Source: Betaproteobacteria bacterium
GTDB taxonomy: Bacteria > Pseudomonadota > Gammaproteobacteria > Burkholderiales > SG8-41
NCBI GenBank assembly: GCA_016202615.1
Contig: JACQOI010000216.1
Location: forward strand, 1-44,657
Direction of reading: 5' to 3'
Length of the DNA: 44,657 bases
Shown: positions 2,088 through 18,231 of the stretch, in pieces
Layout of the letters: each line of letters starts with the position of its first letter
Position numbering within the stretch: the stretch's first letter is position 1
The notes under the pieces: model-generated
Seen by the model: the letters and a program-made list of their open reading frames with translations, nothing else
Databases searched by the model: none
Told to the model about the DNA's origin: nothing
Program-made: the position numbers and the translations under genes

Positions 2088-3602
2088 TTATTTTGATCTT
2101 TGCGGCGGTAACAGCGTACGCGCAAACTCAGCAATCTGCGCCCGCAGTCCGCGCTCGAGCAGACAGTAGCCGGCGAGCGTGTAACAGGCTGCGGCTGTGG
2201 CGAGCACGGCCCACGCAAACCAATACTGGCTGGGGGCAAGGCCGTGAACCAGCAACCGCGCCACTCCGAACACCGTGACGCCGAGGACGACGAACGGCAG
2301 GAAGTTGCCGCGCAGCCATTCGAAATACCCCCGTCCCAAAATGCGACTCTGCACGATGGGCACCAGTACCAGCACGTAATACGCATTGAGGACGGCCCAC
2401 GCCCAAGCGGCGCCGGTGATGCCGTAGCTCTCCAACAGTATGGCCAGCGCCGGCAGATATATCGCGAGGCCCAGCAAGTTGACGCGCAGCGGGATGCCGG
2501 GCCTGCCGCTGGCGACTGCGAGGGTCAGGCAGTTCGAGGCGGCGGCATTCAACATGAAAGCGGCAGCGAGCACCGCCGCGACGTTCGCGGCAGCCAATGC
2601 CGCGTCGCGGACGACCCAGGCGCCCAGAATTTCGGCGCTGAAGAACATGAACATCGCCGCGGGCAGCGTCACCGTATATACAGTGAGCTGGGTGATCTTG
2701 TTATTGCGCGCGCTGAGTCGGGCGATCCGGTCGGTACCGAAGTCGGCGGCGAATGACGGCAGAATCGCGGAATTGAAGCCGCCCTGGATCAACGCAATCC
2801 ACGCGGTGGCGCTGTAGGCCAGATGGTAAAAGCCGAGCGACTCGAGCGGCAGGAACCTGCTGATCGCGATTTTGTCCGTTTGCGTGAGCAGCAGGGCGAT
2901 CACGGATATTGCGCTCATACCCAACGCATAGCGCCAGTTTTCTCGCACAACCCCCGCGGAGAAACGCGGCCAAAGCGACAATCCCGGCACGAGTGTCTTA
3001 CAGCCCACGAGATACGCCACGAGCTCAGCCGCGGAGACCGCGGCTTCCCACCACAACAGATTAAGCAGGTCGCGGTACAGTAACAGCACGACCAGACCGC
3101 CGAGCAGCCGCAGCGTTTGCATACCGGCCTTGAGCAGGTTGAGCAGATCCAGCCGGTTGAGCCCGGATATCACGGCCGCGCATAGCGCGGTCGGACAGCG
3201 CAGCAGCAGCGACACGACAATCAACTGGATGCCGGTCGCAACGGTGGCTGGCGGCAGCTCCGACAACCGAAACCAATGCGTGGCCAGCCAGTCAGCCTGC
3301 CAGGCCAGGCCCGCGCTCGTCATGACCGCGATGGTGCAATAGACCGCCGCTGCGGCTCCAAGCAGCTCTCGTGTCGCTTGATGGTTCGGTGTGGCGTCGG
3401 TTGCGACGCGCTGCACGAGCGTCGCGCCAGCTCCCAGGTCAAGTACTGAAAATACGATTTGCAGCGTCGCGAGCACACCGATCATGCCGTAGGCTTCGCT
3501 ACCCAGGATGCGGATCTGGACCGGGATTACCAGCAGAGTCAATGCAACGATCCACCCCCCGCCCACGGCATTGGTGACAATGTTGCGCCGGATTGCCGTC
3601 AT
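2088..3602 (-). CDS. wzx: Wzx-type oligosaccharide flippase (MOP/polysaccharide biosynthesis protein family), 504 aa
   Basis: ATG at 3602-3600. Hydrophobic throughout, with about 12-14 predicted helices. N-terminus MTAIRRNIVTNAVGGGWIVALTLLVIPVQIRILGSEAYG is the usual start of PST-family flippases. Located in a glycan locus. Confidence 0.7.
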   Translation of the reverse strand: MTAIRRNIVTNAVGGGWIVALTLLVIPVQIRILGSEAYGMIGVLATLQIVFSVLDLGAGATLVQRVATDATPNHQATRELLGAAAAVYCTIAVMTSAGLAWQADWLATHWFRLSELPPATVATGIQLIVVSLLLRCPTALCAAVISGLNRLDLLNLLKAGMQTLRLLGGLVVLLLYRDLLNLLWWEAAVSAAELVAYLVGCKTLVPGLSLWPRFSAGVVRENWRYALGMSAISVIALLLTQTDKIAISRFLPLESLGFYHLAYSATAWIALIQGGFNSAILPSFAADFGTDRIARLSARNNKITQLTVYTVTLPAAMFMFFSAEILGAWVVRDAALAAANVAAVLAAAFMLNAAASNCLTLAVASGRPGIPLRVNLLGLAIYLPALAILLESYGITGAAWAWAVLNAYYVLVLVPIVQSRILGRGYFEWLRGNFLPFVVLGVTVFGVARLLVHGLAPSQYWFAWAVLATAAACYTLAGYCLLERGLRAQIAEFARTLLPPQRSK

Positions 3603-3632: not shown

Positions 3633-4718
3633 TCAGGGGATCGCATACAGCGCTTCGAAGAATGCGGCCTGCACCGCGGCCCGTCGCGCGAACCGGCAAG
3701 ACCAATGCGGTGGTACCGGGTAGTCCTCACGCCGGATCAGCAGCCCGTCTTCACGATTCTTGCTGACGAACCACTGCTTAGAGTAGAAGTGGCCGCGGGT
3801 TACGCGGTCGATCAGCGCGAAATACGCGCGAATTTGATCCGGACGCATCTCGTGCAGCGACGAGATATTGACGAACAGGTTCACGCTTTTGGGCGGCAGC
3901 AGCGCGGCCTGATGGGGCAGCAGGAAGGCAAGCTGCGCTTCTCCCAGTTCCGCAAGCGCGGCGGCATCCCGATCGAAATCGCGAAACCTGAAGACTTTCA
4001 TTCCGGGGAACAACGGCGCCAGGTATTGCTGCGACACGTAAAGCGCGGGCGGGATGTCCACGATGACGTAGCGGCAATTCGGCAGCGCGCTGAGAAACAT
4101 ATACGCATTCCGGCCGTAGCCCGCGCCCAGTTCGCAGATCGTGATCGCGGCGTCGGGCTTCAGTCCGGCCGCATCGGCGATGCAATAGTATTCGAGCGCC
4201 GAATTGGCGAGGTCCTGCGAGATCAACCTGCCGTCAAGGCGGATCGCGAACGGATTGCCGGCCGACGGTTCTTCGATTGTGCGCAACAGTCCCCGCGCAT
4301 CGCGGGCCTGTGCGTAGCGCCACAGCATGCGCGTGAACAGCACCAGCTCCCAGTGCTGTTTGCGCGTGAGCCCCCCGGCCTGATCGAACGGCGGGAAATC
4401 GCCCATGATCGAAGGCCAGTCCCGCAAGCGCGTATGGCGCAGCAGAAAGCGGAACTGACTGTCGATGACGCTGGGGACGAAAGTGAAATAGTTGCGGGCG
4501 AGCGTGCGCTTGAAGTTATCGATGCCGTGCGAACGGAGCTGCGCCATGTTCCGGTCGTTGAGCTTGGTCCAGAATCTTGACGGCAGGTAGACCGGGTCGG
4601 CTTGTTCGAGACATTCGAACATGAGCTGCAGCGTGCGGCCGGGGTCGTCTTCGGGCCGGCCGCGCGCGGCGCTTGGGCCGCCTGCGGCGGGGAGCGGGCG
4701 ACCGTCAGCCGCGGACAT
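3633..4718 (-). CDS. Putative sugar O-methyltransferase (SAM-dependent), 361 aa
   Basis: Motif ICELGAGYGRNAYMFL (glycine-rich SAM loop) in the C-terminal half after a long helical N-domain. This layout resembles the 'putative sugar O-methyltransferase' family found in glycan loci. Start uncertain: ATG 4718 overlaps the upstream gene by 14 nt; the alternative is ATG 4622 (MFECLEQ). Confidence 0.55.
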   Translation of the reverse strand: MSAADGRPLPAAGGPSAARGRPEDDPGRTLQLMFECLEQADPVYLPSRFWTKLNDRNMAQLRSHGIDNFKRTLARNYFTFVPSVIDSQFRFLLRHTRLRDWPSIMGDFPPFDQAGGLTRKQHWELVLFTRMLWRYAQARDARGLLRTIEEPSAGNPFAIRLDGRLISQDLANSALEYYCIADAAGLKPDAAITICELGAGYGRNAYMFLSALPNCRYVIVDIPPALYVSQQYLAPLFPGMKVFRFRDFDRDAAALAELGEAQLAFLLPHQAALLPPKSVNLFVNISSLHEMRPDQIRAYFALIDRVTRGHFYSKQWFVSKNREDGLLIRREDYPVPPHWSCRFARRAAVQAAFFEALYAIP

Positions 4719-5622
4719 CGAGATGTTCCCGCCACCAGCTTATGGTGAGATCGAGTCCCTGGTCGAGGCTGAACCGGGGCGACCAGCGCGCCTGGGTGGC
4801 GAGCCGGTTGACGTCGGCGAGCACCAGCGCAGCTTCATCCTGCCGGGATTCGCGCCGCCCGAAGCTGACAAGTTCGGAATGTCCGAGCTTGTTCACGATG
4901 CGATCCACGATCTGGCGCACCGAGAACGGGGTTCCGGAACCGATGTTCACCGCGCCCTGCAGCGCGCTGTCGAGCACCGCAACGAAGGCCGATGCGACAT
5001 CCGCGACATAAAGGTAGTCGCGCATCTGTTCGCCCGTGGAACAGGAGACCGGTTGCCGGCGCAACAGCGAGCAGATCACTGAGGGCACCAGCCGGCCCGG
5101 CTGCTCTGCCGGACCGTAGAGGAAAAACACGCGCCCCCATGCGCTGCCGAGCCCGGTCTGCCGGGAAACTTCGTCGAGGACCAGGTGCAGTGCGTGCTTG
5201 CAGACGCCATACAGTGCTTGCGGCCGCAGCGGGGTCGTGTCTTCACTGCAGCGGCCGGCCGTCCAGTCATACTCGGCGCAGGTGCCGGCGAATGTCGCGC
5301 GCTGGCCGCCGTGTTTAACGAATGCCCGCAAAAGCCGCAGGCTCGCCTGCACCCAGTCGAGATTTTCCAGCGCTTGCCAGTAACGCCCATGGACCGCATA
5401 CCAGGCGAGATGCAGCAGGTGAGTCGCGCGCACTTTTTCGAGCAGCGCATCGGTCTCGCCGCCCTCGTGCAGGTCCGCACGGTGCCATTGCACGCCGTCA
5501 ATCGCCCCGGCGGGTCGTGACGATACCGCGTGAACTTCGTAGCCGCGCGCGAGCAGCTCGGGTATGCAGTGCCTGCCGATGAATCCGGTGGCTCCGGTGA
5601 GCAGGACGCGCTTCGAATTCAT
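4705..5622 (-). CDS. NAD(P)-dependent epimerase/dehydratase-family SDR, probable NDP-4-ketohexose reductase, 305 aa
   Basis: N-terminal Rossmann motif VLLTGATGFIGRH. Catalytic YxxxK present (YGVCKHAL). ATG 5622 overlaps the stop of the epimerase gene (ATGA). Confidence 0.8.
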   Translation of the reverse strand: MNSKRVLLTGATGFIGRHCIPELLARGYEVHAVSSRPAGAIDGVQWHRADLHEGGETDALLEKVRATHLLHLAWYAVHGRYWQALENLDWVQASLRLLRAFVKHGGQRATFAGTCAEYDWTAGRCSEDTTPLRPQALYGVCKHALHLVLDEVSRQTGLGSAWGRVFFLYGPAEQPGRLVPSVICSLLRRQPVSCSTGEQMRDYLYVADVASAFVAVLDSALQGAVNIGSGTPFSVRQIVDRIVNKLGHSELVSFGRRESRQDEAALVLADVNRLATQARWSPRFSLDQGLDLTISWWREHLDVRG

Positions 5623-6149
5623 GCGGCAAAATCCGGATATTGGCGGTCACGCGGCGATATGATGCGGGTGTCTTCGGGCCACTGGATTCCGAACGCCGGG
5701 TCATTCCATCGCACGCCGCGCGCATGTTCGGGAGCATACGATCCGGCGATCAGATAGTGGACAGTCGAATGGTCGCGCAACGTTTGATAGCCGTGCGCGA
5801 AACCGGCTGGGACATAAAGCGCGCGGGAGTTGTCGGCGCTCAGTTCGGCTGCGAACCAGCGCTTGTAGGTGGGCGAGGCGGGACGTAGATCGACAATGAC
5901 ATCGTACATGGCGCCGGCCACGCAGATTACGACTTTGCTCTCCTCGTGCGGCGCCACCTGGTAATGCATTCCGCGCAGCGTGCCCCTGGCCTTGTTATAC
6001 GCGCTGCTGCATTGGTCTATTCCGGCAGGCAGGCCGTGCCGCTGAAATTCGTCGTGGTCCCACAGGCGCGTAAACGCGCCGCGCTCGTCCTGCGACGGCT
6101 CGAGCTCGACTATCAGCGCGCCCGGCAGGCCGGTGTCATGGAATTTCAT
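5619..6149 (-). CDS. NDP-4-dehydro-6-deoxyhexose 3,5-epimerase (RmlC-family cupin), 176 aa
   Basis: Trimmed to the ATG at 6149-6147 (MKFHDTGLPGALIVE), which forms an ATGA overlap with the upstream stop. RmlC hallmarks: DERGAFTRLW, GTLRGMHYQ, HEESKVV.C..GAMYDVIVDLR, YVPAGFAHGYQTL. Confidence 0.85.
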   Translation of the reverse strand: MKFHDTGLPGALIVELEPSQDERGAFTRLWDHDEFQRHGLPAGIDQCSSAYNKARGTLRGMHYQVAPHEESKVVICVAGAMYDVIVDLRPASPTYKRWFAAELSADNSRALYVPAGFAHGYQTLRDHSTVHYLIAGSYAPEHARGVRWNDPAFGIQWPEDTRIISPRDRQYPDFAA

Positions 6150-7372
6150 GCGATGACTTCGACGGCCGGTACCGGCACCACGAACCGGCCTCGCCAATCC
6201 CGGATGTAGGCGAGCTGCTGCATGATCTCGTTCTTCCAGTTCCATGGCAGTATCAGCACATAATCGGGGCGCGTTCGCCTGATCCGGTCGGGATGATGAA
6301 TCGGAATATGCGTGCCGGGCAGATAGCGCCCTTGCTTGTGCGGATTGCGGTCGACAGTGTAATCCAGGAAGTCGCGCCCGATGCCGCAGTAATTGAGCAG
6401 CGTGTTGCCCTTGGCCGGCGCGCCGTAACCGACGATGCTCTTGCCGGCTTGCTTGGCCGAGACCAGGAACGCCAGCAGTTCCAGCTTGCGGGTTTTGACT
6501 TCTTTGCCGAACTCGCCGTAGGTTTCAAGGCGGTCGAGCCGTCCGCGGCGCTCGCGGTCGCGCACGGCGGCGACGCGATCGGATACGGGCCGGTGCGCGG
6601 ACGGCCGGTGTTGTGCGTATACCCGCAGCGAGCCGCCGTGCGTATCGAGGTCTTCGACATCGAACACCGACAATCCATGCTCGAGCAAGGTCCGCTCCGC
6701 TGTGAGCAGCGAAAAATACGAAAAGTGCTCGTGATATATCGTGTCGAACTGCACTTCCTCGATCAGGCGCAGCAGGCTTGGAAACTCGATACTCAAAACG
6801 CCGCCGGGTTTGAGCAGCAGCGCGAGCCCGCTCACGAAATCGTTCAAATCCGGCACGTGGGCGAGCACGTTGTTGGCGACGAGCAAATCCGCCGTCGCAC
6901 CATCCGACACCATTTCCTTCGCAGTTTGGGAACCGAAAAATCCGATGCGGGTGGGAATGCCGCGCGCGATGGCAACTTGAGCGACATTTTCCGCCGGATC
7001 GACGCCGAGCACCTGAACGTTATGACGCTTGAAATTTTCGAGCAGGCAGCCGTCGTTGCTTCCGATCTCGACGACGCGGTGCTCCTGAGTCAATTCGAAA
7101 CGCATGACGGCAACCTCCGCAAATGCCCGGCAGTGACTGACCCAGCCGTCGGCATAGGAGGAGAAGTAGGCATATTCGCTGAAGATGTTTTGCGGCGTTT
7201 CGAATTGCGGCAACTGCACGAGGTAACAGGAGGTGCAAACGCAGGCGTGCAGCGGGTAGAACGTTTCCGGCAGCGGCAGGTCCGTGTCTGCCGGGAACGA
7301 ATTTGCGAGCGGCGACATGCCGAGGTCGCAGAAAGACTGCACGCGGGAGCCGCCGCAGAGCCGGCACTTCAC
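6146..7372 (-). CDS. NDP-hexose C-methyltransferase (TylC3/EryBIII-like: Zn-binding N-domain + class I MT + C-methyltransferase C-domain), 408 aa
   Basis: No ATG near the conserved N-terminus. GTG at 7372-7370 (VKCRLCGGSRVQSFCDLGMSPLANSF) overlaps the upstream TGA (GTGA). Family-typical motifs: CxxC...PLAN.F...YPL....C..C.LVQL...YAYFSS, VVEIGSNDG, and C-terminal IVGYGAPAKGNTLLNYCGI. Confidence 0.8.
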   Translation of the reverse strand: MKCRLCGGSRVQSFCDLGMSPLANSFPADTDLPLPETFYPLHACVCTSCYLVQLPQFETPQNIFSEYAYFSSYADGWVSHCRAFAEVAVMRFELTQEHRVVEIGSNDGCLLENFKRHNVQVLGVDPAENVAQVAIARGIPTRIGFFGSQTAKEMVSDGATADLLVANNVLAHVPDLNDFVSGLALLLKPGGVLSIEFPSLLRLIEEVQFDTIYHEHFSYFSLLTAERTLLEHGLSVFDVEDLDTHGGSLRVYAQHRPSAHRPVSDRVAAVRDRERRGRLDRLETYGEFGKEVKTRKLELLAFLVSAKQAGKSIVGYGAPAKGNTLLNYCGIGRDFLDYTVDRNPHKQGRYLPGTHIPIHHPDRIRRTRPDYVLILPWNWKNEIMQQLAYIRDWRGRFVVPVPAVEVIA

Positions 7373-8784
7373 GCTGCGCCCCCGGTCGGATGCGCACGGC
7401 GAGCGCGCAGATCGCGCCAGGCGGTCAGGGCGCCCGCGACGCCGAGCGCGACCAGGGTCATCATGAATCCGTATCTCATGCGGTAGAGAGCCCCGACGTT
7501 GGGTATTGCATACGCGTAGGCCACTATCATGGCGCCGCAGAAGATCAGCGTCAGCCAGATTTCGAGCCTGCGCCGCCACGCCCACAGCGCATAGGGTAGG
7601 AACAATAGCGCGGCGTAGACCCCGAGCATCTCCACTGCCGCGATTCGCCCCATGACCGAGGCGGCCGGTGCTGCCTTCTGTTCGAGCCACCCGCCGGGAA
7701 AGGGCGCGAAAAACCCGATTTGGACGGCGCGCGGCAGATAGCCGATAAAGTCACCGGCCTGAGAAAAAGCGATTTGCGTGTCGATGTTGCTGCCAGCGCC
7801 GGGATAACTCTGGACAAAGCTGGTGCGTGCCCGTGCGATGTTGAAAAAAGCATTTTCCGTTTGTTTCGGCAGCCAGTCTGTCGGCAGCCATGATGCGGCT
7901 AATGTTGCGGCGGCGCGGTTTGGGGCTGTCGTAACGAGAGATGCGCGGTCGATGTTCATGTCCGGGGCTTCGATTGACAGCCGGTCATCCTTGGCAGTCA
8001 GCCCCAGCAGCGGAAACGCGACGCACAACACGATTACGGGCAGAACAATTCCCCATGAGGTAGCGCCCCGGATTGCGGCCCTGACAAGTACAATCGCGAA
8101 AACCACGGCAAAAATCAGGGTGACGCCTTGCATAAGCTGGATGCCGTATGGTCTCACGATCCAGACGAGCCCCAGACCGACAATGATCAGCGCCATCGGC
8201 CGGGCGATGACTGACAGACTGCTTTTCCAGATCCCCGGGCGAGCCAGCAACAACCAGCCATACAGATACAACAGCATCCCCGCGATATAAAAGCCGTCCT
8301 TGTGTATTTGGGCGTACCATTGCGCCGCCGATGGATACAGGACAAACGGCAACGCGGCGCACAGCGCGGCGCGGTAACTCTGCGTAATCGATTCCACGAT
8401 CAATATCAGCGCGACTCCGGCGGTGGCGTGCAGTGCCGCGTTGATCGGAATGAATGTCCACGGCTGCGGTACGGTCAGGGCGTAAACCGCGGCGGCGATT
8501 CCCGCCGGCGCCTGGTTCTCCGGCGCAAGGCGCCACGCAGACCATCCCACCGTCCGAATCGCCGCCGCCATTCTCGCGGCGATGTCGTGAAACACGACGG
8601 CATCCGTCCCCGTGAACAGTCCGTTTCCGCCATGCGACGACGATAGCAGGTGTGGCAGCACGAAGAATTGCACGAGCCCCGCGATGACCGCGGAAAACAC
8701 AAAGAAAGCGAGCCAGACGGTCCCGATCGATGGCGCGCGCGCGCCAGGGCTGCCTGCTTTATTGCACGGGGTTTCGCTCTTCAT
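7369..8784 (-). CDS. Polytopic inner-membrane protein (10 or more helices plus one ~110-aa loop); candidate Wzy-like polymerase or other glycan-processing membrane enzyme, 471 aa
   Basis: ATG 8784-8782. Repeated hydrophobic stretches (VWLAFFVFSAVIAGLVQFFVL, FYIAGMLLYLYGWLLLA, WGIVLPVIVLCVAFPLLGL, IWLTLIFCGAMIVAYAYAI). A large hydrophilic loop lies between helices 7 and 8. No soluble-enzyme motif recognised; function inferred from context only. Confidence 0.4.
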   Translation of the reverse strand: MKSETPCNKAGSPGARAPSIGTVWLAFFVFSAVIAGLVQFFVLPHLLSSSHGGNGLFTGTDAVVFHDIAARMAAAIRTVGWSAWRLAPENQAPAGIAAAVYALTVPQPWTFIPINAALHATAGVALILIVESITQSYRAALCAALPFVLYPSAAQWYAQIHKDGFYIAGMLLYLYGWLLLARPGIWKSSLSVIARPMALIIVGLGLVWIVRPYGIQLMQGVTLIFAVVFAIVLVRAAIRGATSWGIVLPVIVLCVAFPLLGLTAKDDRLSIEAPDMNIDRASLVTTAPNRAAATLAASWLPTDWLPKQTENAFFNIARARTSFVQSYPGAGSNIDTQIAFSQAGDFIGYLPRAVQIGFFAPFPGGWLEQKAAPAASVMGRIAAVEMLGVYAALLFLPYALWAWRRRLEIWLTLIFCGAMIVAYAYAIPNVGALYRMRYGFMMTLVALGVAGALTAWRDLRARRAHPTGGAA

Positions 8785-9443: not shown

Positions 9444-9812
9444 GGGTCTGGTTCCGGCGCCGGGCCGGAACGATAAACAACGATGCCATCTTCCTTCTGA
9501 TGGTGGATTGACGTGGAGCAAAATGCCTCACTCCGCACGCATGGTCGGGAGTTTCCTTGTTGCCGGCGACACCTCTTGTGCGCGGATACAGGGAAAGAGG
9601 TATTGGAACAGGACTTCCGTGCCAACTCAAGAAGCAACGGCAGTATCCGTTCCCTCGCCCGTGAGCATGCCTACTCCGGGGTGCCTGCCTACGGCCCTGA
9701 AACGCGTGCGCAGAGTTCCTTTGCGAACAACGCGATGCGCGCGCCCGAAACCCCGGCGAGGTTTCAAGGCATACTACGAGGGGCGACTGACCACCGGGAT
9801 CGCGGGAATTCA
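9444..9812. promoter_or_regulatory. Divergent intergenic region (369 bp) between ydcF-like (-) and the GT-C-like membrane protein gene (+); presumed divergent promoters
   Basis: One of only six noncoding gaps over 100 bp in the window, flanked by divergently oriented genes. Contains a GC hairpin GTTCCGGC-N5-GCCGGAAC at 9451-9471. No confident -35/-10 assignment. Confidence 0.35.
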
Positions 9813-11381
9813 ATGACCAACAGATATCTTGAACCCCCGGCGGGCAGCGACGGCAATCCGATCTCCGCTCTCGCGCTTGCGGTCGGCGTGATCTGGTATC
9901 TGGTGCTTGGGACGGGCATTGTTTCAGACGATTTTGCGTTGATCGTCACGTTGTCCAAGCTGTCGCCGGAAGAAATGCTGTTGCCGACGGCGGCGTCAAT
10001 CGCTACCCCCCTGACGCATTTCACCCACGCGTGGCCGTACCACCTTATCCAGTTCCACGGGGTGATTTTCTACGACTTTCTTAAAGCGCTGTACGTCACG
10101 CTGGCGTTCCTGATGCTGCGGAGTTTTTTCGGGCTCTGGCTCGGCGCCGGGAAATCGATCATCGTCGCCGGGCTTTTCGTTTTTTACCCGATCCATGATG
10201 CCGTGACTTACTGGTTCATGGGGCAGTACCTGCTGCTGTCTTTCGCGTTGTATGCGTTCGCATTTTTCCTGCTCGAGCGCGGACGACCGGTTGCTTCCTT
10301 TGTATTCGGACTGTCGGGATCCTTCATCAGTTATGGGTCTACTGCCATTGCATGCGGGCTGGCGCTGATATTCGTGATGCGCAAGGATTTCAGGCGGGCT
10401 GCGCTGCTGCTGGCCCCCAATCTGATCTATGCAGGGTATTACCTGTTCGTTGCCGTTCATCTTGGAAAAGGAGTCAACCGCATTCCTTCTGACCTCGGTA
10501 TCGCTGCATTGGCAAGACAGTACCTGCTGCAAGTCGCGACCTTTATCGACTCTGCAATTGGCCCTTCTTTCTGGCTGAAGGTTTTTTTTGCGCTGGGGGA
10601 GCTGACGCTGGTCTCGGCGGTCATTGGCGCGACAGTGTGGTTCGCGCTGAGTCGACTGCGTGATGAAAGCGGGGCGGGCGCCGCACGCGGGGAACTCATT
10701 TGGGGTGCGCTCGCCACGACGCTTGCCGCATTCGCGCTGTTCTCGGTTACCGGGTTCTATCCCCAGATCGCGTTCAATCTGGGCGACCGCGTTACGATTT
10801 TCGGCAATTTCCTCATGGTTGCCCTATTGGCCGCGCTGCCCTGGAATCGAAGGCTATGGCTGGCGGCGCTCGGACTCTACGTCGCCGTTGTCTTCGGCGT
10901 GTCGGACCACTGGAAGGCGTGGAACCTGCACCAACAGGCCGTGATCGAGAGGATCGGCGTCAATGCCGGCTTGCGGCAAATATTGCCTGGGCAGGTCCTA
11001 TTCGTTACCGGCAATCAATACAGCAGATTCGGCCGCATCAGCCATCTCGAATTTTTTTCGGAAGCATGGGTAGTCAACTCGGTGTTTGCGTTGGCCTTGT
11101 CGCGACCGCCCGCATACGAAGTGACGCCGCTCAATGCGCGATTTCACTACGCAGACGGTTATCTGGTCGATCGCAAGTACGCAACGAAGCGTCCCGTGCG
11201 CGAATCCATCTGGATTTACGACTCGGAAGGCGACCGGCTGGCCGAGCTGCCGGTTGCCGGCATCAACGCCTACATTGAAAGAATGCCCAGGGACTACCGG
11301 AATTGGGTGCAGTTTCTTGGCGATGGACCGCTCAAGCGCGCAATCCTGTTCCTCATGCCGCGCCTGGAGTACGCCTTCTGA
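9813..11381 (+). CDS. Large polytopic membrane protein with C-terminal soluble domain; GT-C-like (ArnT/PMT-type) glycosyltransferase or polymerase candidate, 522 aa
   Basis: Track ORF 9513..11381 (GTG) trimmed to the ATG at 9813 (MTNRYLEPPAGSDGNPISALALAVGVIWYL). An alternative in-frame ATG lies at 9735. About 11 hydrophobic helices are followed by a ~170-aa hydrophilic C-terminus. Family call is tentative. Confidence 0.45.
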   Translation: MTNRYLEPPAGSDGNPISALALAVGVIWYLVLGTGIVSDDFALIVTLSKLSPEEMLLPTAASIATPLTHFTHAWPYHLIQFHGVIFYDFLKALYVTLAFLMLRSFFGLWLGAGKSIIVAGLFVFYPIHDAVTYWFMGQYLLLSFALYAFAFFLLERGRPVASFVFGLSGSFISYGSTAIACGLALIFVMRKDFRRAALLLAPNLIYAGYYLFVAVHLGKGVNRIPSDLGIAALARQYLLQVATFIDSAIGPSFWLKVFFALGELTLVSAVIGATVWFALSRLRDESGAGAARGELIWGALATTLAAFALFSVTGFYPQIAFNLGDRVTIFGNFLMVALLAALPWNRRLWLAALGLYVAVVFGVSDHWKAWNLHQQAVIERIGVNAGLRQILPGQVLFVTGNQYSRFGRISHLEFFSEAWVVNSVFALALSRPPAYEVTPLNARFHYADGYLVDRKYATKRPVRESIWIYDSEGDRLAELPVAGINAYIERMPRDYRNWVQFLGDGPLKRAILFLMPRLEYAF

Positions 11382-11413
11382 TTCCGCCAATGATTGCGAC
11401 TTAGCCTGAAAAG

Positions 11414-12376
11414 TCAACGGCCGGCGGGACGGGATTTCAGGAAATAATAATGAATGCCTTGCCAGGTCCCGATTGATTTTCCGAGATCGATGATCAGCCC
11501 GACAACACCTAATCCAAGCACCGCCTCAAGCGGATGCTCTTTGTAAAAATCGATACTTCGTGATTTCAAAATCGGCAGGAAAAAAGTTCTTGTCAGAAAA
11601 TAAAACAGGAATACGGCCAGGGCAGCCTTGACGGAAATCGCGAGTATGCCCATGAACAATAATGGAGAAATGACATAAAAGTAAGGTGTCGAATACCCCT
11701 CTATCGCCACCGAGGGCTTGGCGTACAAAACGGATTTTTTGTAAAGTTGAGCAAGGCTTGACGAAAAATTAAAGCCGATATAACGAATTCTTACGTCTTC
11801 ATTAATGCCTCTCTTGATTCCCAGTTTTTTGAGCTTGATCATCCAGGCGACATCGTAGCCCGCGCGTCTGCCTTCCAGCAGCAAGCCTGCTTTTTCAAAT
11901 ATTGTTTTTCTTGCGAGAGTCGTCGGAAAACAGGGCCGATACCTTTTGTAGCCGTAAGTCTGGGCTATGGCGCAGCGATCGACCCAATTCTTGCCGATCA
12001 GATAAACCACGCCGGAGACGACATCGACATCATTTGCTTGTGAAAAGTGAAACTGTTTTTCGAGCCAGTTCCTTTCGAAGTTCTGGCCGCAATCCATGAA
12101 TGCCACCCATTCGGTGCCGGCGCGACGAATTCCCGCATTCTTGGATGAGGCGGGGTTATCGGTGTTCTCGAAAATATTGAAGAATCGCGTGGCATACCTG
12201 TGCTGATTGTTCCGGATCCAGTTATCGGCAACATCGAAAGTATCGTCGGTGGACGACGAATTCACAAAAATGGCCGCTGTGGCGGGCAGGGTCTGCTCGC
12301 CCACGCGCTCGAGCGTAAATTCAATGTTTTCTTTTTCGTTGTGATAAGGAACTATTACTGTGATATCGGGGTTCAT
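11414..12376 (-). CDS. Family 2 glycosyltransferase with C-terminal membrane helices, 320 aa
   Basis: Canonical GT2 start MNPDITVIVPYHNEKENIEFTL, then FVNSSSTDDT and the acidic motif AFMDCG. Hydrophobic C-terminus. Visibly AT-richer than the flanks (hand counts 26-27 G+C per 60 nt at 11521-11640). Confidence 0.85.
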   Translation of the reverse strand: MNPDITVIVPYHNEKENIEFTLERVGEQTLPATAAIFVNSSSTDDTFDVADNWIRNNQHRYATRFFNIFENTDNPASSKNAGIRRAGTEWVAFMDCGQNFERNWLEKQFHFSQANDVDVVSGVVYLIGKNWVDRCAIAQTYGYKRYRPCFPTTLARKTIFEKAGLLLEGRRAGYDVAWMIKLKKLGIKRGINEDVRIRYIGFNFSSSLAQLYKKSVLYAKPSVAIEGYSTPYFYVISPLLFMGILAISVKAALAVFLFYFLTRTFFLPILKSRSIDFYKEHPLEAVLGLGVVGLIIDLGKSIGTWQGIHYYFLKSRPAGR

Positions 12377-13430
12377 ATTTGTGTTTTAGATATCCCTTAA
12401 ACCATTCGATGGTCTTGGCAACGCCTGCTTCAAACGGATGTCCGGGCGCCCAGCCGAAATCCTGATTCACTTTTTCGAAGTCCATGTACTGGCAGTCGAT
12501 CTCGCCGACGGTTTTTTTTCCTTCCATCATTTTCGCGACATCCCTGAAAGCGCGCTCCCGGCCTGCGAGTCGGTAAACGGTTTCCAGGATCTCGCGAACC
12601 GATCTTGGCGCGTTGGTCCCGGCGTTATAAATCCGGCCGCGAACTTTGGCGGGATTGCGGGCAAGGCCCTCTCCAATGCGCAGGTAGAGGTCGGCGACAT
12701 CCTCGACAAAAATGAAATCCCTGATCTGCCGGCCATTGCCCCTCGGAATAAATGTTCCGTAGCCCAGGCAGGCCCTGACCGAGTCAGGGATAACCGCCGA
12801 GAAATTGAGCTGACCGGGCCCGAAGATATTGCAGAATCTCGTGACCACGACCGGCAGGTTGTAAATTTCAGTGGCGTAGCACTGGGCGATTATGTCGGCG
12901 CATGCCTTGGAAACGTCGTAAGGATACCTGGGTATAAGAGGATAGTCCTCCCGGTAGGGCATTTTTTCCCGTGGATAATTGCCGTATGCCTTGTCGGATG
13001 AAGCGACGATAACCGACTTGATGGTTTGCGGGCAGGATCTGATTGCCTCGAGCAAAGAGTAGGCGCCTTTGATGTTGGTTTCAAAGGTCAAATAGGGGTT
13101 GGCGAGGCCAACCCCAACCTCGACTTGCGCGGCGAGATGAAAGACGGCTTGAATTTGTTCCTCGGAAACAATGCGCGCGAGCAGATCCCTGTCCGTGACG
13201 TGACCTTCGATCAGCGTAATCTTCTCGTTTAATTTTTCATAGAACAGCAGTGTGTCGTGTTTGGCGTTTCTGATGAGCCCGAAAACGTTGGCGCCTTTTT
13301 CCAGCAGCAGTTTGGCCAGATTGCCGCCGATGAATCCGTTAATGCCGGTGATGAACACATTCTTGCCGAACCAATAGCCGATTTCTCTTGTTTTCATTTT
13401 CAATGCGCTTTTATCTTGCCGCGAACTCAT
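12321..13430 (-). CDS. NAD-dependent NDP-sugar 4,6-dehydratase/epimerase-family SDR (CDP-glucose-dehydratase-like), 369 aa
   Basis: VFITGINGFIGGNLAKLL Rossmann motif, SSDKAYG and YDVSKACAD (S/YxxxK triad). Start is either ATG 13430 or ATG 13397 (MKTREIGYWFGKN). The 3' end overlaps the GT2 gene by 56 nt with both frames intact. Confidence 0.8.
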   Translation of the reverse strand: MSSRQDKSALKMKTREIGYWFGKNVFITGINGFIGGNLAKLLLEKGANVFGLIRNAKHDTLLFYEKLNEKITLIEGHVTDRDLLARIVSEEQIQAVFHLAAQVEVGVGLANPYLTFETNIKGAYSLLEAIRSCPQTIKSVIVASSDKAYGNYPREKMPYREDYPLIPRYPYDVSKACADIIAQCYATEIYNLPVVVTRFCNIFGPGQLNFSAVIPDSVRACLGYGTFIPRGNGRQIRDFIFVEDVADLYLRIGEGLARNPAKVRGRIYNAGTNAPRSVREILETVYRLAGRERAFRDVAKMMEGKKTVGEIDCQYMDFEKVNQDFGWAPGHPFEAGVAKTIEWFKGYLKHKYEPRYHSNSSLSQRKRKH

Positions 13431-14100
13431 GGATGTTTGCTTCGGCCTCTTCCAGTTCGCGAAGTGTATTCACGGTAATATGAATTCCCCGATGCCTGAA
13501 ACCCTTTAGTTTTCGTTGGGAGCCTAAAAACTGTAAGAACCGGGCATAGCTTGAAAAATCCTTCATCCAGGAAAGGACTTCGTTTTCAAAATAGAAATTG
13601 CCGATATTGATCCACTGATCCAGGATCGGCTTTTCCCGGAAGCTCGTGACATATCCGTCCTGATCGAGCGCTGCCAGTCCAAATTGGCTCTTGAGGGGGT
13701 AAAGAGTAATGGTCGCTTTCGCGCCATGAGAGAAGTGGAACTCCTGAAGCCGGTTAAGATCAACGTCGGCCAGGGTATCGCCATACAGGAGGATAAAGTC
13801 ACCTTTGATATGAGGGGAGCAGGCCTTGATTCTCTCGATGATATCAACGTCGCCGGAGTTCACTATCGTTACATTCAGATCGCGATGATGGTCCGCGAAA
13901 AACAGGTCTATTTTTTCCGCTTGAAAACCGGCCGCGATAATAACATGCTCGATTCCGAATTTCCCGATATGGTCGAGAAGATAGCTCAGGATCGGGCGGC
14001 CTTTCAGGTGCAGCAGAGGCTTGGGGATGGATTCGGTCAATGGTCTGAGGCGTTCGCCCTTGCCGCCGCATAATACCAGTGCCGTCGGGTTATTTTTCAT
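13411..14100 (-). CDS. Sugar-1-phosphate nucleotidyltransferase (NTP_transferase family), 229 aa
   Basis: Trimmed to the ATG at 14100-14098 (MKNNPTALVLCGGKGERLRPLTESIPKPLLHL = G-x-G-x-R-L signature). The 18 codons upstream in the track ORF run into the repeat element. Confidence 0.85.
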   Translation of the reverse strand: MKNNPTALVLCGGKGERLRPLTESIPKPLLHLKGRPILSYLLDHIGKFGIEHVIIAAGFQAEKIDLFFADHHRDLNVTIVNSGDVDIIERIKACSPHIKGDFILLYGDTLADVDLNRLQEFHFSHGAKATITLYPLKSQFGLAALDQDGYVTSFREKPILDQWINIGNFYFENEVLSWMKDFSSYARFLQFLGSQRKLKGFRHRGIHITVNTLRELEEAEANIHEFAAR

Positions 14101-14140
14101 TTGGCTGATTCCAGCGGCGTCTCCGGAAGCCCCCTCGAAA

Positions 14141-14246
14141 TCCCTCCCCTTCAAGGGGAGGGCTAGGGTGGGGATGGGTTAAAACAACGCGATGTGTATT
14201 CGCTCGCCCCACCCCCATCCTGATCTTCCCCCTGAGAGGGAAGGGA
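14141..14246. repeat. Inverted doublet of a ~38-bp G/C-tract repeat (REP/BIME-like)
   Basis: Copy A, 14141-14179: TCCCTCCCCTTCAAGGGGAGGGCTAGGGTGGGGATGGGT, containing the hairpin CCCTCCCCT-TCA-AGGGGAGGG. Copy B, 14207-14246: its reverse complement reads TCCCTTCCCTCTCAGGGGGAAGATCAGGATGGGGGTGGGG. The two copies are tail-to-tail with a 27-bp spacer. Confidence 0.6.
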
Positions 14247-14345: not shown

Positions 14346-15179
14346 TCATGAGGCCGCCGGGTCCGCGCCGCGCCATCGGTACCAATCCCAGTCGCCGTGA
14401 AGCTTTTGTTTGAAGACTCGCACCGAGTCGATACCGAGGACATCGGTGCGGCACAGCAACAACGGATCGCGTGACGGGCCGTTGCTGCCGAAGCGGCTGC
14501 CGGCCCCTATCGTGTAGCCCGCCGCCGCCGCCGCATCCCGTACGCGCCGGTCCACCGCGCCGTGCGGATAGGACAGGCCTGTGACGGCGCGGCCCGTAAC
14601 GTCCTCAAGATAAGCTTTGCTCGTTGCAAGCTCATCATGCAGCGCGCGCTCGTCGAGCCCGGTCAAGGGGGTGTGCGTTGCTCCATGGGAGCCGATCGTG
14701 ACGCCGGGCAGCGCCGCCAGTTCCTTCAGTTCGCCGGGGGTGAGGTAGTTGCCGGAGCCCTGCCGCATGAAGCCGGTGCAAACGAAAACCGTGAACGGAA
14801 TACCGTGCTTTTGCAACACCGGCGCCGCGCGATAAAGGTTATCGCGATAACCATCGTCGAAAGTGACCGCGACGCGCAGCGGTTCGGTCGCGGTGAGCCC
14901 CTGCTCCAGACCCACGATCGAAGCGCTATCGTAATCGGCAAGCGCGGCGACCTGTTGCGCGAACAAATCCGGGGCCATGCTGTAAATGCCGAGTGCGTCG
15001 TCTGCGGCAGCCGACCCGACGGCGTGATACATCAGCACCCGAAAACCGGTGCGGGGCGCAGCGGCGCATCGCGCCAGCGCAATCGTCCCGGAGACGCCGC
15101 GCGTGAATATCCGGCGCCAGCGCATCATCGCGCGGGCCTCGTCGGGCGCGGGTTTCGGGCGAAGCGAGAGCGGTCCCAT
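14346..15179 (-). CDS. Polysaccharide deacetylase (CE4 / NodB-homology domain), 277 aa
   Basis: Motifs VAVTFDDGYRDN (Asp-Asp metal/catalytic motif), TIGSHGATH (His-His) and LSYPHG. ATG 15179 directly abuts the stop of the FemAB-like gene (15180-15182). Confidence 0.85.
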   Translation of the reverse strand: MGPLSLRPKPAPDEARAMMRWRRIFTRGVSGTIALARCAAAPRTGFRVLMYHAVGSAAADDALGIYSMAPDLFAQQVAALADYDSASIVGLEQGLTATEPLRVAVTFDDGYRDNLYRAAPVLQKHGIPFTVFVCTGFMRQGSGNYLTPGELKELAALPGVTIGSHGATHTPLTGLDERALHDELATSKAYLEDVTGRAVTGLSYPHGAVDRRVRDAAAAAGYTIGAGSRFGSNGPSRDPLLLCRTDVLGIDSVRVFKQKLHGDWDWYRWRGADPAAS

Positions 15180-16196
15180 TCACATGACATTGCGGCGCAT
15201 CCCGATCAACCAGTTGGCGGGCAGCGAAATCAAACCCGGGTATGCCCATTCCCATTCGCCCAGGTATTCGATGGGCGTGGCGCCGGTTCCTTTCTTGAAA
15301 TCATATACGCCTCGATTGCCGGCGGGGTCCACCCCGGCTAGATCGTAATGCCGGATGCCTTGTTGATGGCAGTGCTGCGTCAGCGCCCAGAACGCCGCGT
15401 ACGAAGCGTACGATTTGCGTCCCGCCACCGCGGTCGCAGCGAGCAGATCCCACGCCTTGTCACCCATCACCGCGCAAGCGCGGCACGCAAGCATCGCGCC
15501 GCTTGCGTCGCGGCAGCGATAGACGACGACGCGGTCGCCGAGATGCTCGAACAATGAGCGCAGGTAATCCTTGGAATGTTGTTGCGCAAGATGCTTGTAG
15601 TCCTCCATGTCCGTGTAGATAGACCGCAGCGCTGACGCATCGGGCGCAGCCCAGCGATCCACCGTCAGCCCATACTTTTCGGAGCGCTTCAGGTTATGGC
15701 GCCAGTTTCTGCTGCAGGCGGCGAGCCGATCCGCTTCCGGCCGCGCGAGGTCATAGTGCAGGCTCAATCCAGTCGTGAGCCGGGCGCGCGGCCGGCGCCA
15801 GCCGCGGTCTGCCAGCAGTCGCTCATCGTCATCGTGACGGTTCTTGAAAGAGTTAAAGCGGCAGTAGAGCGCTCTGAGGCCGGTGCCATGAAAAACCGCG
15901 TGCTGAAAATCTTCGTTCCATGCCGCGACTTCGCCGGCGGGTCCGCCCGGCATCCACATCACGCCTGTGCCGCACGGATAGCGGCGCAGCAGTCCCTGCG
16001 CCATTGCGACGATGCGTTCGCCATCGAAAGCCGCCCAGCGGTACGGGGCCCAACCTGATGCGCGGCGGTGCTCGCCCCACGCGAGCGTCTGGTAAATCGA
16101 ATAGCCGTCGTGTGCATGCAGATCGCGGTCCCAGCCGGCGAGCGCCTGCACATCGGCGATGAGTTTCCACGTCACCACAGGAAGCTCGCCATCCAT
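15180..16196 (-). CDS. FemAB-family (GNAT-fold) acyl/aminoacyl transferase, 338 aa
   Basis: Length and layout match a duplicated GNAT-like domain. C-terminal YDLAGVDPAGNRGVYDFKKGTG resembles the FemAB/lipid II glycyltransferase-like family found in EPS loci. Identified by eye only. Confidence 0.6.
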   Translation of the reverse strand: MDGELPVVTWKLIADVQALAGWDRDLHAHDGYSIYQTLAWGEHRRASGWAPYRWAAFDGERIVAMAQGLLRRYPCGTGVMWMPGGPAGEVAAWNEDFQHAVFHGTGLRALYCRFNSFKNRHDDDERLLADRGWRRPRARLTTGLSLHYDLARPEADRLAACSRNWRHNLKRSEKYGLTVDRWAAPDASALRSIYTDMEDYKHLAQQHSKDYLRSLFEHLGDRVVVYRCRDASGAMLACRACAVMGDKAWDLLAATAVAGRKSYASYAAFWALTQHCHQQGIRHYDLAGVDPAGNRGVYDFKKGTGATPIEYLGEWEWAYPGLISLPANWLIGMRRNVM

Positions 16197-17257
16197 ACCG
16201 ACGTGTAATGCGCGGGTGCGGTAGGGGCCACCGCGTCGGGGAGTTCCGGCCAGCGGAAGCAGTCGAGTGCGAATTCCTGCAGCACGCGCGCGGCGGCAGC
16301 GGCAGCATACGCGTCGGCACGGAACGGGTAGCCATACGGCACGACGTGCTCCGGCAGCGCGTTAAACAGCGGCGGGCAGCGCGAGGGATCGAGCATCTCG
16401 CCCACGCGCTCATAGAGCAGGCGCCGCCGCGCGCACTCCGCTGCGACGTCGGTATGCGCCATCACATCGAATAACATTTGCGATGGCGCGGCGTGCGCCG
16501 GCATCCGCTGTTCGGCGTTCGGCGACGACGGCGGTACACTATGACCGCTGCCTACCCGGCGCGCCCAGCGCACGCACGTCGTGGCAAACCGCGCCGGAGC
16601 CGAGCCCGCGACGGGTACCAGACGCCTGAGGCCGTACTTGATCCGGAACGACAATGGCGCCGGCGCGGCGTCCGGCGCAAGCTGCGGCGCAAGCGCGGGC
16701 ACGAACTTCGGGTTATTTACCGCCAGCGCCGCGCCGTCCGGCGCCGGCAGCGTTTTTCTCAGGCTGAAGATGCCGAGGTCGCCGCGCGCGCCGAGCGCGC
16801 GGCCTTCGGCGTCGCGGCTGAACAGACCGTGCGCGTTGTCTTCGATCAGCGCGGCGCCGGTTCGTGCGCAGTAGCGCGCGAACACGGTGAGGTCCTGGGG
16901 AAAACCGAAATAATCGACCGCCAGCACGGCTTTCGCTGCCGGCAGCCGGGTTGAGTCGTAACCGGGAGTCAGGTCCGGCCCGACCGGATAATACCCGGGC
17001 GTCGCTTCCACTGCGTGCAGCGCGGCCAGCACTTCACGGCAAATAAACTCGGGCAGCAGAACCGTATCGCCGGCTTTAACTCCGGCGATACGCAGCGCGG
17101 CGGCAAGCGCGTGACGGCCGAAGCTGAAGTAGCGGACGTTGTCATGCCCGACAAGCTGCTCCAGCCGCCATTGCGTGAGACGGGCGGGGGGGCAATACAC
17201 GCCGCGGATCAGCTGGCGATCGACCCGCGGCAGTGCGATGCGCGCCGGACCGGTCAC
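16172..17257 (-). CDS. DegT/DnrJ/EryC1/StrS-like PLP-dependent sugar aminotransferase/dehydratase, 361 aa
   Basis: Trimmed to the GTG at 17257-17255 (VTGPARIALPRV), which overlaps the upstream TGA (GTGA). Family-like segments: FGRHALAAALRIAGVKAGDTVLLPEF, ALIEDNAHGL, and GDLGIFSLRKTLPAPDGAAL (candidate PLP lysine). Confidence 0.6.
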   Translation of the reverse strand: MTGPARIALPRVDRQLIRGVYCPPARLTQWRLEQLVGHDNVRYFSFGRHALAAALRIAGVKAGDTVLLPEFICREVLAALHAVEATPGYYPVGPDLTPGYDSTRLPAAKAVLAVDYFGFPQDLTVFARYCARTGAALIEDNAHGLFSRDAEGRALGARGDLGIFSLRKTLPAPDGAALAVNNPKFVPALAPQLAPDAAPAPLSFRIKYGLRRLVPVAGSAPARFATTCVRWARRVGSGHSVPPSSPNAEQRMPAHAAPSQMLFDVMAHTDVAAECARRRLLYERVGEMLDPSRCPPLFNALPEHVVPYGYPFRADAYAAAAAARVLQEFALDCFRWPELPDAVAPTAPAHYTSVWMASFLW

Positions 17258-18231
17258 GCTTTCCTCGCGAGGATCGCGATCATGTCGTTGCCGAGCCCGA
17301 GCGCATCGAACTTCGACAGCAACCGCTGCATTTGCCGTGCTTCCCTGACGCCGAGGCCGGCGCCGAATGCGCCGCGCAGCGGAGCGCATGCGTCCGCCGC
17401 GGCAACGAACATCTCGGGATACGAAAACGTTTCGAACCTGACCAGCGCGAGCCCGAACCTGTCCACGTAGTTGAGAATGTCCTGCTTGCGGAAATGGTAC
17501 AGGTGAATCGGCACCTCCACGCAGTCCTTCGCGATGCGGTAGAGCAGACCGTCGTAATTCGGCGCCGCGATAACCGCCTTGCCGCCGTCCGCAAGGTGCG
17601 CGGCGATGAAGCCGAAATAGGCGCTGGGCGCATGCACGTGTTCGAGCGACCAGTTCATCCGGATGACGTCAAAGCGCTCCGCGGCCGGAATGTCATCGAT
17701 GCTGCGAAAGGCCTGGATGCCGCTGTCGCCAAGCACCCGCCGCGCTTCGTCGTCGACTTCGACGCCGCACACCGCCGCGATGCGCCGGTAATACAGCAAC
17801 GATCCGCGGTAACCCCAGAAATGCGCCGATACGCCCGCGCCGCAGCCGATGTCGAGGATCCTGCGCTGCCCGCCCGGCGCAAGATGGCGCAGCACCGGAT
17901 CGGCGATGCGCGGTTTCACGCGTGCACCGAGCTTGCGGTTGAGGTACGGGACGCAGCAGAACAGCCAGTGCAACGGGCTGTTGGCGACAGCATCGAGAAT
18001 ATCGGCAGCCAGGAGCTTGAAGCGCGACGGCGCCGCGTGGAAGCTGTATTGCTCGGCGTAGTAACGGCCGATTTCGCCGCGCGTCGGGCGCGGATTCAGA
18101 TAGTGCAGCCCGCACCCGTTGCAGCTTACGATCGTGAATACCTCGTCGGTGGTACGGTGGAGAATGTCCGTCTGCCGCGTGACCGCGTTATATTCGCGTT
18201 TGCCGCAGAAGTCGCAGCTTACCTCTTCCAT
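17254..18231 (-). CDS. Class I SAM-dependent methyltransferase with N-terminal Cys4 zinc-ribbon, 325 aa
   Basis: The track start at 18246 is a TTG. The ATG at 18231 (MEEVSCDFCGKRE...VSCNGCGLHYL) lies 7 nt after the upstream stop. SAM loop ILDIGCGAGV. Same architecture as the 1202-2083 product. Confidence 0.8.
   Translation of the reverse strand: MEEVSCDFCGKREYNAVTRQTDILHRTTDEVFTIVSCNGCGLHYLNPRPTRGEIGRYYAEQYSFHAAPSRFKLLAADILDAVANSPLHWLFCCVPYLNRKLGARVKPRIADPVLRHLAPGGQRRILDIGCGAGVSAHFWGYRGSLLYYRRIAAVCGVEVDDEARRVLGDSGIQAFRSIDDIPAAERFDVIRMNWSLEHVHAPSAYFGFIAAHLADGGKAVIAAPNYDGLLYRIAKDCVEVPIHLYHFRKQDILNYVDRFGLALVRFETFSYPEMFVAAADACAPLRGAFGAGLGVREARQMQRLLSKFDALGLGNDMIAILARKA

Follow-up and report, generated by a model that had tools for sequence, protein, structure and literature searches.

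A predicted CDP-sugar tailoring cassette for a methyl-branched, O-methylated 6-deoxy-L-sugar in a betaproteobacterial surface-glycan island

Introduction

Which activated sugar enters, and which sugar leaves, a compact set of four overlapping genes at positions 3633 to 7372 of contig JACQOI010000216.1 (here C142), which belongs to a betaproteobacterial metagenome-assembled genome that is 80% complete? The genes, referred to below as the cassette, encode a C-methyltransferase (C-MT), an RmlC-type epimerase, a short-chain dehydrogenase/reductase (SDR) and a putative sugar O-methyltransferase (O-MT). The entire contig, 44.7 kb long, was analysed and is called the window; nearly all of its genes lie on the minus strand and together they form a surface-glycan island. 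From comparisons of sequence and gene neighbourhood we propose that the cassette is probably the tailoring module of a cytidine diphosphate (CDP)-sugar pathway, yielding a methyl-branched, O-methylated 6-deoxy-L-sugar.

Surface glycans rarely contain C-methyl-branched 6-deoxy sugars, examples being cereose of Bacillus spores and virenose of Coxiella lipopolysaccharide. The core route, from CDP-glucose through 4,6-dehydration, C-3 methylation and 4-reduction, is already known from cereose and its epimer cillose; adding an epimerase and an O-MT extends it. The CDP-linked C-methyl route to which a first-pass annotation of the window had drawn attention is therefore not the first of its kind; what the window adds is the epimerase- and O-MT-containing version. 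The cassette is common in bacteria, C-MTs of its clade occurring in hundreds of species across many phyla, and no product has so far been assigned to the epimerase-containing, O-methylating CDP version. Such an assignment would name a gene set that is annotated generically ('class I SAM-dependent methyltransferase', 'dTDP-4-dehydrorhamnose 3,5-epimerase'; SAM, S-adenosylmethionine; dTDP, deoxythymidine diphosphate), and would correct the dTDP label of the epimerase.

Results and discussion

The cassette and its enzymes

The first-pass annotation had placed four overlapping genes on the minus strand, and all four are found at the coordinates that it gave (Table 1). Their junctions, checked base by base, are GTGA, ATGA and ATGA followed by a 14-nt overlap, and the short starts (GTG at 7372, ATG at 6149) are those that match the N-termini of homologues. 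The translational coupling of the four genes favours reading them as a single tailoring module. Matches to hidden Markov models uphold the enzyme assigned to each gene, including the Methyltransf_13/14 domains of C-MT. This protein has the three-part architecture of an N-terminal Zn-binding domain (PF08421, 74 bits, 1.1e-20), a SAM-binding Rossmann domain (PF13489, 61.7 bits) and a C-terminal Methyltransf_14 domain (PF08484, 225.9 bits, 2.9e-67), and it gives full-length alignments with the solved enzymes MtmC (271 bits), KijD1 (242 bits) and TcaB9 (227 bits). Cys3, Cys6, Cys46 and Cys49, the zinc-binding cysteines of the family, and the active-site motif Y213-H214-E215-H216 are invariant or nearly so across 17 homologues, and an EIGSNDG motif is invariant; the Y-H-E-H residues presumably correspond to the catalytic residues of TcaB9. 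From its 55% identity (470 bits) to the C-MT of a Bacillus mycoides plasmid operon, we infer that the enzyme methylates C-3 of a nucleoside diphosphate (NDP)-4-keto-6-deoxyhexose.

The Methyltransf_13/14 architecture is shared with NovU, and an RmlC-type gene lies directly downstream of C-MT, as NovW accompanies NovU in the textbook noviose pathway. On these grounds the window enzyme might instead methylate C-5 once 3,5-epimerisation has taken place, and so yield a noviose-like sugar with a 5-C-methyl (gem-dimethyl) group. We give this very little credence, however, because every one of its nearest characterised relatives (the Bacillus cereose C-MT, MtmC, KijD1 and TcaB9) methylates C-3, and because the same C-MT clade is found in operons without an epimerase, for example in Bacillus.

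The predicted epimerase matches PF00908 (1.8e-59) and TIGR01221 (166.4 bits against a cut-off of 155.75), and carries the catalytic-type residues His62, Lys72, Tyr138 and Asp168. The cassette SDR (PF01370, 4.2e-43) has GATGFIG and Y137xxxK141 motifs, and its orthologues, 44-63% identical, come after RmlC in other operons.

Gene linkage points to CDP-sugars

RfbF and RfbG, whose genes head the co-directional glycan array to which the cassette belongs, are shown by homology to be the pair that would make CDP-4-keto-6-deoxy-D-glucose; both had been named in the first-pass annotation, and their equivalog-level matches are genuine (Table 1). We compared the surroundings of C-MT genes at the best 80 of at least 597 loci, whose C-MTs are 54-61% identical to that of the window and which span cyanobacteria, Acidobacteriota, Nitrospirota, Pseudomonadota, Chloroflexota, Planctomycetota and other phyla. 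A neighbour was counted if it lay within 10 kb of C-MT, and RfbG if it was at least 40% identical. An RfbF-family gene was present at 72 of the 80 loci and an RmlC-type gene at 62, with RfbG at 19 and an orthologue of the cassette SDR at 10; RmlA was found at one locus and RmlB at none. The order RfbF-RfbG-CMT-RmlC-SDR recurs as an operon (L041, L058, L066, L070, L078, L081, L094 and L096), and in a quick maximum-likelihood tree the window C-MT and its two closest metagenomic relatives sit in a part rich in RfbG-linked RfbF-RfbG-CMT-RmlC(-SDR) operons. This difference in linkage between RfbF and RmlA/RmlB, the nesting of the window C-MT among such operons, and the homology to an operon of the Bacillus cereus group support a role for the cassette on CDP-sugars, the carrier that had been suggested from the window.

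Several observations weigh against this assignment. Resolution in the C-MT tree is poor: the set that contains the window C-MT has a support of only 82. No RfbG is nearby for 53 of the 72 RfbF-family neighbours; two RfbF-like proteins from RfbG-less loci were tested and reached 214 bits against the TIGR02623 cut-off of 300, so that such loci may activate another sugar. Within the window, the cassette lies 13 kb from rfbFG, unlike the contiguous Bacillus operon, and, lying beyond a gene on the plus strand (9513-11381), belongs to a different transcription unit. In addition, rfbG has cupin and SDR partners of its own, and a second nucleotidyltransferase/dehydratase pair is closer to the cassette than rfbFG. 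Elsewhere in this incomplete assembly, rmlA and rmlB are found on contig C24 without rmlC or rmlD.

A second type of locus lacks RfbG and combines a GalE-like SDR, C-MT, a PIG-L deacetylase and a sub-cut-off RfbF-like protein; RmlC and a DUF4910 protein are encoded close by. This is a very common setting for the C-MT clade, met with in cyanobacteria, Acidobacteriota and Mesorhizobium plasmids (for example L024 from Nostoc, L083 from Tunturiibacter and L155 from the Mesorhizobium plasmid pWSM1497), and probably represents a separate, so far uncharacterised branched-sugar pathway. Counting every RfbF-like neighbour as support for CDP-glucose was therefore rejected, as second-type loci support a link to the cytidylyltransferase family only.

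The nucleotidyltransferase/dehydratase pair nearer to the cassette, noticed earlier for its AT-richness, is real and spans 12321-14154. The 4-keto substrate might come from it instead; were it to replace RfbF and RfbG, it would set the nucleotide and possibly the hexose, with the same skeleton as outcome. It is the nearest activation module, about 5 kb from C-MT, and it stays next to the cassette in L114, L115 and two genomes of the same genus (G008 and G002). The best solved relative of its transferase is RfbF (PDB 1tzf, 91.5 bits; 28% identity to the window RfbF), and dehydratases of its type take the place of RfbG between RfbF and C-MT in L026, L046 and L068. Supply by this pair nevertheless seems unlikely to us. 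Both proteins fall under every NCBIfam cut-off, such a dehydratase is found at 3 of the 80 C-MT loci and the transferase type is the best match at none, and the DegT-like, FemAB-like and deacetylase genes that immediately precede the pair may be its own partners. We continue to favour RfbF and RfbG as the source. The cupin and SDR genes beside rfbG (19150-20558), also present as first annotated, are predicted to form a sister branch off the same CDP-4-keto intermediate.

The epimerase lineage and a dTDP alternative

RmlC-family bit scores, compared across 30 relatives, fall into two classes: canonical copies (230-272 bits to TIGR01221) adjoin rmlA/rmlB/rmlD, and cassette-type copies (140-186 bits) adjoin C-MT, RfbG or the cassette SDR. 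In a tree of 98 sequences the canonical clade stands apart (99), and the window copy is nested among 73 C-MT-linked copies from many phyla. The window epimerase is over the TIGR01221 equivalog cut-off, yet it lies outside the rmlA/rmlB/rmlD-linked lineage, and an identification of the cassette RmlC with the housekeeping rmlC was rejected on bit-score class, neighbourhood and tree. In agreement with this, G008 has both the four-gene cassette (67, 63, 61 and 71% identity) and a complete canonical rmlC-rmlD set, so that the cassette does not stand in for RmlC there. Another genome of the genus has RfbF-RfbG-RmlC-type-SDR without C-MT (L181; G004:C39:721-4185). The lack of C-MT places the RmlC-type and SDR enzyme types directly on CDP substrates, and this operon would make an unbranched CDP-6-deoxy-L-hexose.

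At a further same-genus locus (L180; G017:C10:70026-73502), C-MT lies beside RfbG and RmlC and its match is broken into four pieces, suggestive of frameshifts or a pseudogene.

The first-pass annotation saw no rmlA/rmlB or gmd. This is correct for the window, and gmd was not found in the genome; however, rmlB (C24:6194-7213) and rmlA (C24:8289-9158) are present outside the window at equivalog level. Its overall interpretation is supported as to the enzymes, the CDP carrier and a likely methyl-branched, O-methylated 6-deoxy-L-hexose, but not as to the absence of a dTDP source. Because rmlA and rmlB are present, dTDP-4-keto-6-deoxyglucose can be made, without an obvious consumer. Relatives have the order rmlB-rmlA-rmlC-rmlD; in C24:6194-9383 a VapBC-like toxin-antitoxin pair lies between rmlB and rmlA, and a PseB-like gene then stands where rmlC-rmlD would canonically be. 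No rmlD over the cut-off was found in the 80%-complete assembly, and its sole rmlC-family gene is the cassette copy.

It might therefore be argued that RmlA and RmlB supply dTDP-4-keto-6-deoxy-D-glucose and that the cassette RmlC and SDR replace the missing RmlC and RmlD, the product being dTDP-3-C-methyl-L-rhamnose-like, as in actinomycete mycarose or nogalose routes. The TIGR01221 score of the cassette RmlC would be compatible with this, and all solved C-MT relatives use dTDP-sugars. We consider such a route improbable. RmlA and RmlB are all but missing from the neighbourhoods of the C-MT clade (1 and 0 of 80 loci), the cassette RmlC lies outside the canonical clade, G008 keeps the same cassette alongside rmlC-rmlD, and the apparent gaps come from an assembly that is just 80% complete. 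Moreover, C-MT scores 470 bits against the Bacillus CDP-operon enzyme versus 271 bits against MtmC. A CDP-sugar substrate accordingly remains our preferred assignment.

Relation to characterised branched-sugar pathways

In their 2017 work, Li and colleagues reportedly showed that the products of a Bacillus cereus operon are CDP-3-C-methyl-6-deoxy-gulose (cereose) and the 4-epimer of this sugar, cillose. A survey includes CDP-cereose and CDP-cillose among characterised CDP sugars derived from Glc-1-P (PMC7725333). Homologues of all four enzymes of the operon, a cytidylyltransferase, a CDP-Glc 4,6-dehydratase, a SAM-dependent C-MT and a 4-reductase, are present in the window, and plasmids of the B. 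cereus group carry rfbF-rfbG-C-MT-oxidoreductase in the gene order of the cereose operon. Over 299 residues and without gaps, the cassette SDR and the Bacillus operon reductase share 38% identity, a relation that the SDR beside rfbG does not have. The Bacillus operon consists of four contiguous genes and has no epimerase (D-series), whereas in the window there are also an RmlC-type epimerase and an O-MT. The Bacillus sugar is found on a spore glycoprotein; the host of the window is Gram-negative, a betaproteobacterium whose glycan depends on Wzx.

The Bacillus cereus HN001 plasmid pRML01 (L112) has an rfbF-rfbG-C-MT operon without the reductase gene, with TnpB just downstream and IS4 transposase genes on both sides; B. 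mycoides pBM487 (L154) holds an intact four-gene copy.

Actinomycete routes of the dTDP-L-mycarose type (TylC3/TylK/TylC2; MtmC, TcaB9, KijD1) use the same C-MT family and follow the logic proposed for the cassette: a 4-keto sugar is methylated at C-3, an RmlC homologue then epimerises C-5, and the 4-keto group is reduced last. They differ in using dTDP-linked, 2,6-dideoxy or amino substrates and in belonging to antibiotic clusters, whereas the window C-MT is linked to CDP-glucose enzymes in a surface-glycan island.

In PMC4053727, Sinorhizobium meliloti pSymB genes SMb21416-SMb21418 are annotated as ddhA, ddhB and an NDP-hexose 3-C-methyltransferase. This is the same rfbF-rfbG-C-MT core as in the window, and the C-MTs of Sinorhizobium plasmids are approximately 53% identical to the window C-MT; these plasmids differ from the window in the TIGR04371 O-MT, of which a homologue search of PLSDB found none on any plasmid. 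We know of no product of the rhizobial ddhA/ddhB/C-MT genes.

Proposed pathway and product

If the cassette works on the CDP-4-keto-6-deoxy-D-glucose supplied by RfbF and RfbG, C-MT would deprotonate C-3 beside the 4-keto group and methylate the resulting C-3 enolate from SAM, as in the B. cereus cereose pathway. An RmlC-type enzyme acting after C-MT would invert C-5 only, because the methylated C-3 is quaternary; this is the situation of the mycarose pathway (TylC3, TylK, TylC2). Were it to act before C-MT, C-3 and C-5 would both be inverted and methyl transfer would reset the configuration of C-3. Either order would give an L-series sugar. The label '3,5-epimerase' in the first-pass annotation thus holds for the RmlC-type family, but is too broad for an enzyme that follows C-3 methylation. 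The SDR would then reduce the 4-keto group to give CDP-6-deoxy-3-C-methyl-L-mannose or -L-talose, the TIGR04371 methyltransferase would add the O-methyl group either to the CDP-sugar or to the residue once transferred, and the sugar would become part of a Wzx-dependent glycan of the cell surface for which the surrounding array codes.

If C-MT shares the facial selectivity of the Bacillus enzyme, the 5-epimer of the gulo product would be 6-deoxy-3-C-methyl-L-mannose, and that of the allo product (cillose) would be 6-deoxy-3-C-methyl-L-talose, the 2-O-methyl ether of which is vinelose. Because 5-epimerisation of cillose gives the L-talo skeleton, the earlier suggestion of vinelose is chemically coherent. 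CDP-vinelose of Azotobacter vinelandii, which we take to be 6-deoxy-3-C-methyl-2-O-methyl-L-talose, matches the predicted CDP carrier, 6-deoxy and 3-C-methyl groups, L-series and single O-methyl group; a difference is that the cassette travels with a second methyltransferase. Whether the product is vinelose hinges on the configuration that the reductase sets at C-4 and on the hydroxyl that the O-MT methylates, neither of which is predictable from sequence. The genes for vinelose are not established in the literature searched, a search on vinelose giving no paper, and none of the best 80 of at least 597 C-MT loci is from Azotobacter. We offer it as a speculative idea, with the odds against it, that CMT-RmlC-SDR plus the TIGR04371 O-MT are the long-missing genetic basis of vinelose-type sugars, with O-methylation at the level of the nucleotide sugar. 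An assigned product could then give genes to the orphan CDP-vinelose, and what has since the 1960s been known as a nucleotide sugar of Azotobacter alone would turn out to be a widespread building block of Gram-negative surface glycans. Vinelose does not figure among the characterised CDP-sugar pathways in the list compiled in 2020 (PMC7725333). A C-methyl-branched sugar, 3-C-methylrhamnose, is a constituent of the O-antigen of another betaproteobacterium, Burkholderia andropogonis (PMC7203242).

The O-methyltransferase

The O-MT matches TIGR04371 ('putative sugar O-methyltransferase') with 126.6 bits against a cut-off of 44; searches of Pfam and of PDB sequences gave no match. Its ELGxGYGR and DIPPAL motifs are invariant among 20 homologues, and all top Foldseek matches of its AlphaFold (AF2) model (pLDDT 84) are class I SAM methyltransferases. 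Homologues were found at 41 metagenomic loci, and a C-MT module adjoins about half of those with enough flank. Among cultured carriers of the C-MT clade are Thermithiobacillus tepidarius DSM 3134 (L025) and Bosea sp. (L096), the latter with an O-MT homologue. O-MT homologues lie beside or inside CMT-RmlC-SDR modules in L114, L115, L117, L118, L119, L125, L132, L137 and L182, and in L119 and L125 the O-MT is placed between C-MT and RmlC (CMT-OMT-RmlC-SDR operons). From its family and gene linkage, the protein is predicted to methylate a sugar hydroxyl.

Conservation of the array

In G008 and G002 a 22-kb array reaching from RfbF to the cassette is found on one strand, with 40-74% protein identity to the window. 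Its order is RfbF-RfbG-cupin-SDR-GT2-(methyltransferase)-DegT-like-FemAB-like-deacetylase-nucleotidyltransferase-dehydratase-GT2-DUF218-membrane protein-CMT-RmlC-SDR-(O-MT)-Wzx-methyltransferase; the RfbF-RfbG-cupin-SDR part is kept at 55-72% identity in both genomes, and the G002 array has no O-MT.

The G+C content is 0.49-0.53 over 11001-14000, which holds the GT2, dehydratase and nucleotidyltransferase genes, versus approximately 0.62 elsewhere in the window. These low-GC genes are 63-74% identical in the two same-genus genomes, and their conservation within the arrays indicates that the low-GC block is old within the genus. A private, recent insertion of the AT-rich 11-14 kb segment was rejected, given 73% protein identity within the same array in two genomes of the genus.

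Neighbouring genes

Table 1. Predicted genes of the cassette, of sugar activation and of the cassette flanks (positions in the window).
Predicted product	Position	Strand	Match or remark
C-MT, NDP-4-keto-6-deoxyhexose C-methyltransferase (TylC3/TcaB9/MtmC family)	6146-7372	minus	408 aa, GTG start
RmlC-type epimerase of C-MT-linked lineage; predicted to act at C-5 (or 3,5) of a CDP-4-keto sugar	5619-6149	minus	
Extended SDR; predicted NAD(P)H-dependent 4-ketoreductase	4705-5622	minus	PF01370
Class I SAM-dependent methyltransferase, TIGR04371 (NanM) family; predicted sugar O-methyltransferase	3633-4718	minus	
RfbF, glucose-1-phosphate cytidylyltransferase; predicted first step	21621-22421	minus	TIGR02623, 318 bits vs cut-off 300
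RfbG, CDP-glucose 4,6-dehydratase; predicted supplier of CDP-4-keto-6-deoxy-D-glucose	20560-21636	minus	TIGR02622, 483 bits vs cut-off 278
Divergent RmlC-like cupin	20109-20558	minus	PF00908, 38.7 bits
SDR beside rfbG	19150-20112	minus	PF01370
AT-rich RfbF-related nucleotidyltransferase	13411-14154	minus	Below all NCBIfam cut-offs
4,6-dehydratase-like SDR (AT-rich pair)	12321-13430	minus	Below all NCBIfam cut-offs
Polytopic membrane protein, about 8-10 hydrophobic segments (hydropathy scan)	7369-8784	minus	Stop overlaps C-MT start (GTGA)
Wzx-type flippase	2088-3602	minus	PF01943/PF13440; downstream of cassette
Second methyltransferase (Methyltransf_23)	within 1202-2386	minus	PF13489; downstream of Wzx

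The membrane protein gene that precedes C-MT gave no Pfam or NCBIfam match. Its homologues lie directly 5' of C-MT in L114, L115, L183 and L187, and it is possibly a glycan polymerase or transferase. On the other side, Wzx and the second methyltransferase come after the cassette in L114, L115, L186 and L187. The listed open reading frame of the latter has a start that overlaps wzx, and the real start is probably downstream of 2386. Cassettes that contain an O-MT are repeatedly accompanied by this Methyltransf_23 gene, at 39-59% identity (L114, L115, L117, L118, L125 and L153), and the sugar or glycan may therefore bear a further methyl group.

Between rfbF and the contig start, the sole gene on the plus strand (9513-11381) encodes a polytopic membrane protein of 622 aa without a family match; it is present in G008 and absent from the otherwise syntenic, uninterrupted G002 array. 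Upstream of the AT-rich pair, 14346-17389 on the minus strand encodes a weak, partial DegT-family protein (53 bits), a FemAB-family protein and a polysaccharide deacetylase; the group is syntenic in relatives and may be an aminoacylated amino-sugar branch. A CBS-NTP transferase and a CMP-sugar synthetase, also encoded in the window, belong to its legionaminic-acid genes.

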